A stretch of 7,410 nucleotides of DNA from a virus (IMGVR_UViG_2600254985_000002:1-7410), one strand, 5' to 3'. Numbered from the stretch's first letter, positions 2,909 through 6,902 are shown. Notes: a model not told the origin generated them from the sequence alone. Numbers and translations are program-made.

Positions 2909-3191
2909 TATTAAATTTGATGAAAAACAGCTAGAAGAAGTTGTGAAAAAAGTTACTGAAAAACTTAAAAAAGAGAAAGATTCAGATACAGCAAAGGAAA
3001 AAGTGTCAGTAATGTATTTAGAATTTAATGAAGCAAATCATGCAAGCGAGAAAGGTAAACTTTACTTTGGGCATGCTTTTCACACTTTGTCAAAAAAGTA
3101 TGCTTCGGAGTTTTATTTATCTAGTGAATCTGATTTGACAAAAGCCTCAGAGCTTAAAAGCCAAGGTTGGAGAGAAGAGGTTATCGAATGA
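2895..3191 (+). CDS. hypothetical protein (98 aa)
   Basis: ATG with GAGGAG RBS (about 2884..2889). Stop TGA (3189..3191) overlaps the next ATG (3188). No recognisable motif. Confidence 0.6.
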   Translation: METINIKFDEKQLEEVVKKVTEKLKKEKDSDTAKEKVSVMYLEFNEANHASEKGKLYFGHAFHTLSKKYASEFYLSSESDLTKASELKSQGWREEVIE

Positions 3192-3754
3192 GTGTATTTG
3201 AAGAACTAAGCGTTATTAATGTAAATGATAAGAAAAGCAAAAAGAATAATTTAGATTATCTTAGTTGGGCATATGCATGGTCTGAAGTTAAAAAAGTATA
3301 TCCTGAAGCTAACAGTAAAGTTTATGAAAATGAACAAGGGTTAAATTATCACACAGACGGTCGCACAGCATGGGTTAAGGTTGGTATGACTATTGAGGGC
3401 TTGGAGCACATTGAATACTTGCCTGTAATGGACTATCGTAACCAATCTATCCCAGTTGAAAAACTGACTTCTATGGACGTAAATAAAGCCATTCAGCGTG
3501 GACTAGTTAAGGCAATTGCTCGTCATGGTTTAGGGCTATATATTTATGCAAATGAAGATTTACCAGTTCTAACAGAAGAACAAAAAGAGCTTGAAGCAGA
3601 AAAACAACGACTTAGAGAGATTCAGCCACTTATAAAACGAGCTGAACAACTAGGATACCAAAATATTGACAGCTTGAAAAATAAGACTAAAAAAGAAATT
3701 ACCGACATCATGAAGATTTGGTTAGCACAGCAAGAAACAGAAAAAGGGGAATAA
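3188..3754 (+). CDS. putative phage single-strand annealing / recombination protein (Sak3/DUF1071-like)
   Basis: Track ORF begins at 3167, but ATG 3188 has RBS GGAGAGAAGAGG and an ATGA overlap with the upstream stop. Motifs LDYLSWAYAWSEV and AIARHGLGLYIYANEDLP recalled as typical of this SSAP family; position immediately upstream of an SSB-like gene is the classic sak-ssb arrangement. Family assignment is from memory. Confidence 0.5.
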   Translation: MSVFEELSVINVNDKKSKKNNLDYLSWAYAWSEVKKVYPEANSKVYENEQGLNYHTDGRTAWVKVGMTIEGLEHIEYLPVMDYRNQSIPVEKLTSMDVNKAIQRGLVKAIARHGLGLYIYANEDLPVLTEEQKELEAEKQRLREIQPLIKRAEQLGYQNIDSLKNKTKKEITDIMKIWLAQQETEKGE

Positions 3755-5288: not shown

Positions 5289-5537
5289 ATGAAACAAAAA
5301 TACTTTAATGACAAAAGATATTGCCACTGCTTCGATATACCAATGAGTAATGGTTTAGGAGTTTGCAAAGATTGTAGAGGATACGTGAACATCTGTTATA
5401 GTTGCGATCGCTGTCTACACTGCTGGTTTACATCACAGGTTGAACTATTTACCGAATATGATGAACCTAAGTTGCTGGAACTTATAGAAAACTGGAATAA
5501 ATTTTACCAAACTAGAAAGACAATAAATAATGCTTAG
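5289..5537 (+). CDS. Cys-rich putative zinc-binding small protein (82 aa)
   Basis: Cys/His pattern C-H-C … CKDC … CYSC-x2-C-x-H-C within about 35 residues. Stop overlaps the methyltransferase start (ATGCTTAG). Confidence 0.6.
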   Translation: MKQKYFNDKRYCHCFDIPMSNGLGVCKDCRGYVNICYSCDRCLHCWFTSQVELFTEYDEPKLLELIENWNKFYQTRKTINNA

Positions 5538-6417
5538 TTTAGACGAGAAGAAAATCAGAAAAGGTAAACCTATTGGATTACCATACCAAGGAAGCAAGAA
5601 AAAGATAAGCAAGAAAATAGTTGAGATTATCAAACAGAACTTTGGCACAGACAAGCCGATATACGACATCTTCGGAGGAGGCGGAGCAATTACATCCGAA
5701 TGTATTTTAAATGGCTTAGAAGTATATTATAACGACTTAGACAAGGATATAACCAACGCTTTTGAACGAGTTATCTCTCAAGACCGTGAGTGGATTAAAA
5801 GCCTTATTGTTTCACGTACAGAGTTTACCGAGATTAAGGAGAAAGAAAACAAGACAACAGATGACTTTTTGAAGTTGCTGATTAACTCTTTCGGTAATAA
5901 AAAGAGAGATTATTTATATTCTAAAGAAATTTCAGATTTAAAATATAATCTAGCTAAAGAAATAATTGAAAAGCATGACGTTTTTAGTGGTTATAAACAG
6001 ACCAAAACATATAAGAGATCGATTGAAAAGTACAAACAACTTCAACAACTTCAACGACTTCAACAACTTGAACGACTTGAACAACTTCAACGAATTCAAC
6101 AACTTCAAAAATTAAATAAAATAAAAGCTACAAGCAAAAGTTATCATGCTTTTAGTGATGTTTCTGGAGCTATTCTATATCTTGACCCCCCTTATGAAGG
6201 AAGTCACCAAAAAGGTTATATTAATCAATTCGATAGTCAAGAGTTTTATGACTGGGCATTTGTAATGGCTAAAAATAACATCGTGATAATTTCAAGTTAT
6301 TCAATTTCAGATGAACGCTTTGAAGCTGTATATTCTTTTGACAAAGCGCGCAGCACTCTCCAAAGTGGAAGAAGCAAAAAAGAAAATGAGAAATTATTTA
6401 TGGTTAAAAACAGTTAA
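5530..6417 (+). CDS. N6-adenine DNA methyltransferase, D12/Dam-like (alpha-class motif order)
   Basis: N-terminal G-S-K-K-K-I region, FGGGGA AdoMet-binding motif (5671..5688), NDLDKDI block, and catalytic DPPY (6184..6195) in the order motif I … DPPY. Well-established family hallmarks. Confidence 0.85.
   Translation: MLSLDEKKIRKGKPIGLPYQGSKKKISKKIVEIIKQNFGTDKPIYDIFGGGGAITSECILNGLEVYYNDLDKDITNAFERVISQDREWIKSLIVSRTEFTEIKEKENKTTDDFLKLLINSFGNKKRDYLYSKEISDLKYNLAKEIIEKHDVFSGYKQTKTYKRSIEKYKQLQQLQRLQQLERLEQLQRIQQLQKLNKIKATSKSYHAFSDVSGAILYLDPPYEGSHQKGYINQFDSQEFYDWAFVMAKNNIVIISSYSISDERFEAVYSFDKARSTLQSGRSKKENEKLFMVKNS
6034..6114 (+). repeat. imperfect 9-bp tandem repeat (consensus CAACAACTT, about 9 units) inside the methyltransferase ORF
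   Basis: Units in order: aaacaactt, caacaactt, caacgactt, caacaactt, gaacgactt, gaacaactt, caacgaatt, caacaactt, caaaaatta. In frame, encoding KQL-QQL-QRL-QQL-ERL-EQL-QRI-QQL-QKL. Confidence 0.85.
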
Positions 6418-6474: not shown

Positions 6475-6594
6475 ATGAAAGATACAGTAAAAACTTTAAT
6501 GATGGTTGCAGGTGTCGGCCTTACACTTATCGCTATCACTTGGATAGGTATGCTTGCGACGTTGCTTATTGCATGGATTGGGGGTAACATCTAA
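6475..6594 (+). CDS. small hydrophobic peptide (39 aa, single predicted TM helix), not in the supplied ORF track
   Basis: ATG 6475 with AGGAG RBS 7 nt upstream and its own promoter. Translation MKDTVKTLMMVAGVGLTLIAITWIGMLATLLIAWIGGNI. Stop TAA (6592..6594) overlaps the next ATG (TAATG). Confidence 0.5.
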   Translation: MKDTVKTLMMVAGVGLTLIAITWIGMLATLLIAWIGGNI

Positions 6595-6902
6595 TGAATT
6601 ATGGTACAAATAAGCACTATGCCAATGAATACGGTATGGAACTTAACGAATACTTTAAACATCATTTTAACTATGAAGAGCTTGCAGGCTGGTATACAAT
6701 GCAGGTATTAAAGTATCTAGTGAGAGCTGGCAAGAAAGAGGGTGAAAGCTACGACAAAGACCGTAACAAGGCTTTAGACTATGCAGGAGAACTTGCTAAC
6801 TTAAGTAACGAGAATAAGCTTACAGAATACACTGCTGACGACATTATGAGCTTTGCACAAGATATAGCTGATGATTTCAAACAATGGAAAGGCGAAGAAT
6901 AA
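6594..6902 (+). CDS. hypothetical phage protein, possibly DUF3310-like
   Basis: 102 aa, translationally coupled to the small peptide gene. Pattern NKHY … VLKYLVRAGKK … DKDRNKALDYAGEL resembles what I recall of DUF3310 phage proteins; family name is from memory. Confidence 0.55.
   Translation: MNYGTNKHYANEYGMELNEYFKHHFNYEELAGWYTMQVLKYLVRAGKKEGESYDKDRNKALDYAGELANLSNENKLTEYTADDIMSFAQDIADDFKQWKGEE

Follow-up and report, generated by a model that had tools for sequence, protein, structure and literature searches.

What does a 9-bp repeat do inside the gene of a DNA methyltransferase, where units are gained and lost between phages that are otherwise nearly identical? The question is raised by a viral stretch of 7,410 nucleotides (IMGVR_UViG_2600254985_000002:1-7410; the whole stretch is called the window below), which represents the early (replication) region of a 936-type phage, a Lactococcus skunavirus. 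Over its full length the window is 98.4-98.7% identical to phages BM22 (98.7%), BM9, and BM1 from a Canadian cheese plant. Its orphan alpha-class D12 N6-adenine DNA methyltransferase has an array of nine 9-bp units between motif I, FGGGGA, which binds S-adenosylmethionine (AdoMet), and the catalytic motif IV, DPPY. As argued below, I hold with moderate confidence that the array is a coding minisatellite driven by slippage, with 9-bp units and an 18-bp hexad super-period, and that it encodes a helical arm tolerant of changes in length.

Is the repeat real and in frame? A first-pass annotation, made from the DNA alone, had described nine in-frame 9-bp units at 6034-6114 lying between FGGGGA and DPPY, and both statements were confirmed. 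Tandem Repeats Finder reports a period of 9 at 6035-6108 (8.2 copies, 84% matches, score 106) and a period of 18 (4.1 copies, 89% matches, score 120). Codon 169 begins at position 6034, so that 6034-6114 makes exactly 27 codons (residues 169-195, against 48-53 for FGGGGA and 219-222 for DPPY). The encoded peptide reads KQL QQL QRL QQL ERL EQL QRI QQL QKL. The 18-bp super-period arises because the middle residue of the units alternates Q with R or K. In the best 72-nt segment, 53 of 63 positions match the base nine positions away, while 5000 codon shuffles gave 27.8 +/- 2.2 matches and at most 39 (z about 11); elsewhere in the window, lag-9 matches reach 32 at best. Thus, the in-frame repeat is well beyond chance. 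With head-to-tail units and a length that is a multiple of 3 nt, it belongs to the in-frame coding tandem repeats, or variable-number tandem repeats (VNTRs).

Does the number of units change? The first-pass annotation had regarded the repeat as a substrate for changes in steps of three residues, and the comparison of homologues bears this out. Phages BM22 and BM9 are 99.6% identical over 7.4 kb and differ by 31 substitutions; the only indel between them is one 9-bp unit of the array. At the DNA level, phage DM7 has exactly one 9-bp unit fewer and phage 63302 exactly two fewer, with identical flanks. Across the 120 protein clusters closest to the window protein (identity of at least 76%), the array ranges from 6 to 20 triplets and the protein from 287 to 325 residues. 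The length of the variable region differs in 26% of the protein pairs whose flanks are at least 99% identical, in 42% of the pairs at 97-99% flank identity, and in 79% at 94-97%. At a flank identity of at least 94%, all the length differences (269/269) are multiples of three residues (9 bp), while upkeep of the reading frame alone would demand just multiples of one residue. Thus, the changes keep the register of the unit, which is what slippage or unequal exchange would produce. Even and odd triplet counts are not preferred over each other in the close lactococcal homologues. In a distant, Oscillibacter-type cluster, three otherwise identical proteins have 9, 12, and 18 triplets. Together with BM22/BM9, DM7, and 63302, this cluster establishes the copy-number polymorphism of the array as a VNTR. 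As a separate observation, 4 of the 31 substitutions between BM22 and BM9 lie inside the 81-bp array (at window positions 6038, 6043, 6049, and 6053), against an expectation of about 0.3; base changes, or conversions between units, are thus also concentrated in the array.

Repeats prone to slippage are familiar from phasevarions, in which Type III mod and other methyltransferase genes, with repeat units that are not a multiple of 3 nt, are turned ON and OFF by frameshift. The likeness to the array is that slippage-prone repeats in methyltransferase genes produce heterogeneity in a population. Unlike them, the array has a 9-bp unit and is always in frame. Frameshift phase variation by simple sequence repeats (SSRs) is ruled out by this unit length and by the 269 of 269 length differences that stay in frame.

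Unequal exchange leads to another explanation, namely that the repeats are a patch of homology for the exchange of the N-terminal (recognition) and C-terminal (catalytic plus loop) halves of the protein, the length changes being a by-product. There are pairs that look like products of such an exchange: P0072 and P0116 share 100% identity up to the array and 86% beyond it, while P0001 and P0022 go from 89.5% to 99%, the switch falling inside the array. The identities of the N-half and the C-half are correlated with r = 0.41, and tandem and decayed paralogues of the gene exist (see below). Mosaic breakpoints cluster at residues 160-179, which is suggestive only, since uneven conservation along the protein confounds the scan: breakpoints also cluster at residues 90-109, where the conservation changes. 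However, clearly discordant pairs number 18 of 6105, and the one-unit changes between phages that are 99.6% identical need no exchange. As the reason for the array, this explanation is quite doubtful, and it is an addition to the slippage-driven helical arm rather than an alternative to it. Given the mosaic pairs and the tandem and decayed paralogues, unequal exchange between arrays may plausibly contribute to the length changes as well.

Is the repeat maintained for its DNA or for its protein? In the array, the Leu codon is CTT in all seven of the CAA/GAA-type units, while CTT accounts for 3 of the 17 Leu codons in the rest of the gene. Likewise, all three Arg codons of the array are CGA, against one of nine elsewhere in the gene. 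Homologues at 43-66% identity have the same polar-polar-Leu array written with other but equally uniform Leu codons: CTA in the Streptococcus thermophilus phage VA460; TTA in a group B Streptococcus (GBS) prophage, the Leuconostoc phage LDG, and Weissella; CTG in Ligilactobacillus; and CTT in the lactococcal phages. Judged by the Leu codon, units are more alike inside an array than between lineages, as in concerted evolution. Since the Leu codon is uniform in each lineage and the pattern is kept, the DNA unit is renewed inside each lineage with the amino-acid pattern conserved. This indicates a concerted turnover of the array DNA combined with selection on the protein pattern.

The same codons bear on the idea that the array is a DNA- or RNA-level element (an origin, a regulatory RNA, or iterons bound by a protein) whose place inside a coding region is incidental. 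The array DNA is indeed a regular direct repeat. However, the Leu codons differ between lineages (CTT, CTA, TTA, or CTG) with the amino-acid pattern kept, so that the DNA unit is not conserved and a purely DNA-level function is ruled out. Furthermore, the array always keeps its place in the protein across phages and bacteria whose contexts are unrelated, and many skunaviruses do without the gene, such a methyltransferase gene being present in 41 of 90 936-type phages (PMC4759559). I regard this idea as very improbable.

Is the array a lactococcal oddity? An exhaustive HMMER search of 1.84 billion cluster representatives yielded 2344 relatives at E <= 0.001. Among the best 150 of these, 85 are full-length representatives (31-60% identity), and 74 of the 85 have at least four consecutive polar-polar-[LIVMF] triplets (up to 23) just upstream of strand beta3 and DPPY. 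The shortest arrays of the family have 4-6 triplets, about the length of a 14-residue helix of EcoDam. From this distribution, the array is a hallmark of a broad D12 clade, kept at one fixed position, and not a lactococcal oddity. Both the gene family and in-frame coding repeats as a phenomenon are known; I found no description in the literature of such an array in D12 methyltransferases. A second indel hot spot was observed in the relatives directly after DPPYE, equivalent to about 6196-6230 of the window (relatives L039, L078-L080, L092, and L093). Some relatives, including a Weissella and a Streptococcus, have an insertion of about 55 residues after DPPYE (KGKxQKRxVKxEVYKEMRDKLLKL...).

What kind of enzyme carries the array? 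The protein matches PF02086 at residues 19-234 with 53.6 bits (cut-off 22; E 3.4e-14) and is thus a member of the D12 family. The 295-residue open reading frame (ORF) also matches phrog_56, 'DNA methyltransferase', with E 3e-66, and the gene is present at an identity of at least 80% in 230 Lactococcus phage records. The order of its parts is that of the alpha group: motif I, a helical recognition insertion (residues 72-192, between strands 65-68 and 199-201), and DPPY. In 145 homologues, F48, G49-G52, and A53 of motif I are invariant or nearly so. Since no restriction endonuclease gene was found within the window, where the neighbours of the methyltransferase gene are Sak, SSB, small membrane proteins, and SaV, the methyltransferase is an orphan, as the first-pass annotation had it. 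Its further label, Dam-class, is right for the D12/Dam-like fold but not for the family: the score against TIGR00571 'dam' (GATC-specific) is 44.4 bits, below the cut-off of 114.85. Thus, the protein has a D12/Dam-like fold but lies outside the Dam family proper. The features are listed in Table 1.

Table 1. Features of the methyltransferase gene and its surroundings in the window (TRD, target-recognition domain; AF2, AlphaFold2)
Feature	Position	Strand	Residues	Basis and remarks
Orphan alpha-class D12 N6-adenine DNA methyltransferase gene	5530..6417	+	295 aa	ORF, Pfam, PHROG, orthologues, AF2 fold
Motif I FGGGGA (AdoMet binding)	5671..5688	+	48-53	Sequence; follows strand 44-46 in the model
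Conserved loop FSGYKQTKTYK	5983..6015	+	152-162	Alignments, hhalign; last conserved TRD element before the variable region
Variable lead-in RSIEKY	6016..6033	+	163-168	Alignments
Array of nine in-frame 9-bp units (18-bp super-period), (Q/E/K)-(Q/R/K)-(L/I)	6034..6114	+	169-195	Tandem Repeats Finder, lag-9 matches, codon homogeneity, unit deletions
Degenerate tenth triplet NKI, closing the array	6115..6123	+	196-198	Hydrophobic third position kept
KATSKSY, strand beta3 / motif III, return of the chain to the catalytic domain	6124..6144	+	199-205	Model, alignment, hhalign
Motif IV DPPY (catalytic)	6184..6195	+	219-222	Sequence; invariant in the family
sak	3167-3754			SaK annotation in matching phage records; methyltransferase gene lies between sak and sav
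sav	6594-6902			SaV annotation in matching phage records

The elements around the array differ in their conservation. In the loop that precedes it, F152, G154, Y155, and T158 are conserved across the family. The lead-in is replaced in relatives by, for example, VTSGxxWNWFNxK or ATYNAKQENDK, and the equivalents of the tenth triplet are NKI, DEV, NEV, or DKV. In the following strand, K199, A200, T201, K203, S204, and Y205 are invariant in a four-sequence alignment, and Y205 is nearly invariant in the 145 homologues. An A-rich, AAAAT-like repeat (3.8 copies, 6108-6126) lies directly after the array and encodes the KLNKIK junction to beta3.

As for the neighbourhood, sak and sav are the genes in which mutations allow phages to escape the abortive-infection systems AbiK and AbiV. 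The early-region stretch around the methyltransferase gene is rich in genes that interact with host defence. Directly upstream, a Cys-rich ORF of 82 residues (5289-5537, plus strand) with several CxxC-type pairs overlaps the start of the methyltransferase gene by 8 nt. It belongs to phrog_1825, labelled 'DNA methyltransferase', and is far too small for one; it could be a zinc-binding partner, or the annotation could have been carried over by adjacency. This ORF is absent upstream of the methyltransferase gene in Phi15 and P4565. In the databases, the entry for the identical methyltransferase reads 'hypothetical protein KV39_03425 [Escherichia coli]', and near-identical copies are labelled Porphyromonas macacae and Paenibacillus kribbensis. 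No match to the window was found among 5,426 complete E. coli genomes. The copies with these three bacterial labels look like phage contaminant contigs in bacterial assemblies.

Where does the array lie in the fold? An AlphaFold2 model was made from the 145 homologues, with a mean predicted local distance difference test score (pLDDT) of 77 and a predicted template-modelling score (pTM) of 0.76. In the model, strand 44-46 and motif I are followed by strand 65-68, a helical insertion at 72-149, and helices at 159-168 and 174-192. The last helix, which is that of the array, leads to strand 199-201 (beta3), strand 215-218, and DPPY; residues 201-210 have a mean pLDDT of 92. Foldseek matches the model to the Dam-type enzymes EcoDam (2g1p), T4Dam (1yfl), and DpnM (2dpm) and to 7m6b, with E-values from 6e-6 to 6e-4 and template-modelling (TM) scores of 0.43-0.64 at 12-16% sequence identity, so the fold is Dam-like. 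HMMER searches of all PDB sequences with the protein and with the 145-sequence profile found no methyltransferase, and the link to the Dam-type enzymes therefore rests on the fold comparison. What the window protein shares with them is the fold and the order of AdoMet region, recognition insertion, and catalytic region. The NSFGN, F-G-Y-K, and DPPY elements can also be paired, if by a weak hhalign alignment. What separates them is the low identity, the missing HMMER match, the score below the TIGR00571 cut-off, and a reported target that is not GATC.

In EcoDam, a helix at about residues 144-157 lies between the FGRYKKP loop and strand beta3. In the weak hhalign alignment, NSFGN is paired with NRYGYNG of EcoDam, DVFSGYKQT with NVPFGRYKKP, the start of the array with EcoDam residues 144-157 (PEAELYHFAEKAQN), and IKATSKSY with AFFYCESY, while most of the array is an insertion relative to EcoDam. 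In other words, EcoDam has a non-repetitive stretch of 14 residues where the clade of the window protein has the triplet array. From this placement and the similar length of the shortest family arrays, the array would be an expanded connector helix. The model puts it at the C-terminal edge of the TRD insertion, outside the recognition loops. The first-pass annotation had assigned the array to the region that carries target recognition; judging from the same weak alignment, it borders that region without being inside the recognition elements. It had also named a fixed structural helix shared by the family as an outcome that would speak against its reading. A helix is indeed common to the D12 clade, but its length is variable and not fixed.

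Can the array be a coiled coil, as had also been proposed? The hydrophobic moment of the array peaks at 120 degrees (2.55; a periodicity of 3.0) and is 0.48-0.62 at 100-103 degrees, where a GCN4 control gives 1.22-1.38. On an alpha helix, a Leu at every third residue winds round the axis once per 18 residues and leaves no seam. A canonical heptad coiled coil is rejected, since the periodicity of the moment is 120 and not 100-103 degrees. The same result bears on the more general possibility that the array is a protein-protein interface, which would mediate a dimer or oligomer, form a domain-swapped dimer through a long helix, or bind a partner from phage or host. In favour of this, Leu and Gln abound in the strongly helical sequence, a long and stiff helix joining the N-terminal half to beta3 would promote domain swapping, and tandem paralogues could heterodimerise. 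However, there is no heptad or amphipathic signal, while GCN4 behaves as expected, and the Leu residues are spread round the helix. Free variation in length would put the partners out of register, and Dam-type enzymes are generally described as monomeric. An interface is quite unlikely.

The first-pass annotation had further compared the array with Type I HsdS subunits, in which the number of repeats in the central conserved region changes (EcoR124I versus EcoR124II). In HsdS, two recognition domains are held apart by a coiled coil, and the repeat number sets the spacer of a bipartite target. The array resembles this in being a short in-frame amino-acid repeat in the helical part of a specificity-related protein, and its copy number likewise differs between close relatives. 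Unlike HsdS, the enzyme of the window is a single chain with one recognition domain and no heptad, and the targets reported for its orthologues are contiguous 4-mers (PMC4190342). An HsdS-type spacer, which needs two TRDs and a bipartite target, was rejected because the array lies between a single recognition insertion and beta3, has no heptad periodicity, and belongs to enzymes with reported motifs that are contiguous 4-mers.

How, then, could a slippage-driven helical arm work? The array may be an expansion of a short helix by which, in Dam-type enzymes, the chain passes from the recognition domain's last DNA-contact loop back to the Rossmann sheet. The four or five C-terminal triplets probably form the core helix, while the other units would stick out into the solvent as a helical arm. 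With a Leu at every third residue, packing contacts would be supplied by whichever unit adjoins beta3, and slippage that preserves the register may be tolerated for this reason. The array would be renewed continually by replication slippage or unequal recombination, and selection would keep a helix-compatible composition and a minimum length, with the total length only loosely constrained. Most of the length variation would then be tolerated rather than instructive. The tolerance is seen in the occurrence of any count from 6 to 20 among close relatives, while a rigid positioning helix would turn by 60 degrees with each unit. When a 20-unit variant was modelled by AlphaFold from its single sequence, one uninterrupted helix was predicted at residues 159-231 (pLDDT 93-97) and the rest of the model was poor. 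This shows an intrinsic helical propensity of the array, nothing more.

Several points weigh against this reading. The array has a pLDDT of just 43-56 in the alignment-based model, so that its modelled geometry is tentative, and the hhalign comparison with EcoDam is weak (probability 21%, E 0.001) yet coherent, which makes it a lead only. A rigid single helix of 60-70 residues cannot leave a domain and return to it. Long arrays would have to fold back, bend, or swap domains, and the model gives none of these preference. The persistence of the array down to 31% identity may mean that repetitiveness itself is useful. The variable region has length modes of 36 residues with the RSIEKYK lead-in (12 triplets) and 39 residues with the VTSG..WNWF lead-in (7 triplets); the sampling is not independent, and the similar total lengths hint at some length constraint. 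Finally, orthologues with short and long arrays have been reported with slightly different motifs (PMC4190342).

The orthologues in question are M.Phi15I, M.Phi93II, and M.Phi145II, orphan methyltransferases of the replication module of 936-type lactococcal phages (Murphy et al. 2014, PMC4190342; Murphy et al. 2016, PMC4759559). The gene of the window is 84-85% identical to theirs outside the array and has the same genomic position, and the published reverse primer Phi145.M2R matches the window at 6398-6417. The proteins share the alpha-group motif order and the same array, which has 9-10 triplets in the window protein, 7 uniform units plus end triplets in M.Phi15I, and about 19 triplets in M.Phi145II and M.Phi93II. 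The M.Phi proteins have the VTSGxxWNWFNxK lead-in, while the window protein does not. The repeat is not mentioned in either paper (PMC4190342; PMC4759559); the legend of Figure 3 in PMC4190342 records just that the numbers of residues removed from the alignment were not the same (55 versus 15). By single-molecule real-time (SMRT) sequencing, CC(m6A)G was assigned to M.Phi15I and CY(m6A)G to M.Phi145II and M.Phi93II (PMC4190342), tentatively, from small genomes and without validation by cloning.

Is the length of the array then a tuning knob? Under this explanation, the array length would shift the adjacent DNA-contact loop (FSGYKQT, comparable to FGRYKKP of Dam) and so change specificity, stringency, or activity, a fast and reversible in-frame change of methylation against restriction systems. 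The array begins seven residues after the conserved loop that hhalign pairs with FGRYKKP, and its length changes are among the fastest in the gene. The short-array enzyme M.Phi15I and the long-array enzymes M.Phi145II and M.Phi93II differ in the reported motif. The array persists over deep divergence, and some phages keep two paralogues with different arrays. However, Phi15 and Phi145 differ also in a predicted hairpin loop (DKKSYM versus KKINYL) and at other sites, which confounds the comparison of CCAG with CYAG, and the motif assignments have the limits given above. Tolerance of any unit number, with a rotation of 60 degrees per unit, is hard to fit with precise positioning. Other loops vary independently and are more usual determinants of specificity: the lactococcal proteins have four peaks of variability, at the array (168-198), the hairpin loop (124-130), the post-DPPY loop (226-229), and the C-terminal loop (278-286), and the last three are more conventional specificity candidates. 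In my judgement, tuning by a shift of the contact loop is unlikely, and a role of the array in adjusting specificity or activity has, taken as a whole, a similarly low probability.

In phages with tandem methyltransferase paralogues, the two copies are about 81% identical. An example among the skunaviruses is P4565 gp37 and gp36 (L099:2501-4374), and others were found at L005, L006, L008, L009, L021, L025, L029, L033, L039, L046, and L089. The paralogues differ chiefly in the hairpin loop, the lead-in, the array, the post-DPPY loop, and the C-terminal loop, a pattern that suggests two putative specificities in one phage. Decayed second copies were also observed. In PhiS0139 (L104:3440-4446), the N-terminal half is full of frameshifts and an ORF survives from just before the array, while 3R16S (L103:2157-2483) has only a C-terminal fragment that starts near the end of the array.

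An extension of the tuning explanation to the whole family would make the triplet array an in-frame contingency locus, the growth and shrinkage of which shifts the DNA-contact loop and alters the motif, the stringency (for example, from CCAG to CYAG), or the level of methylation. This is a rather improbable extension. If it were true, mobile elements would gain a rapid and reversible answer to host restriction systems, one that differs from frameshift phase variation and from HsdS domain shuffling.

What does the array mean for the phages that carry it? Which restriction-bearing starter strains a dairy phage can infect depends in part on phage orphan methyltransferases. With this role in host range and a hypermutable segment beside the recognition domain, the gene is therefore a candidate for rapid adaptation. 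The array also marks a large and poorly characterised D12 clade in Firmicutes phages and prophages. If its length is neutral, the array would be a natural example of how far a connector helix of the Rossmann fold can expand, and a high-resolution typing marker for near-identical factory phages. If its length alters specificity or activity, the array would represent a third route to methylome variation, beside frameshift phase variation and HsdS recombination.

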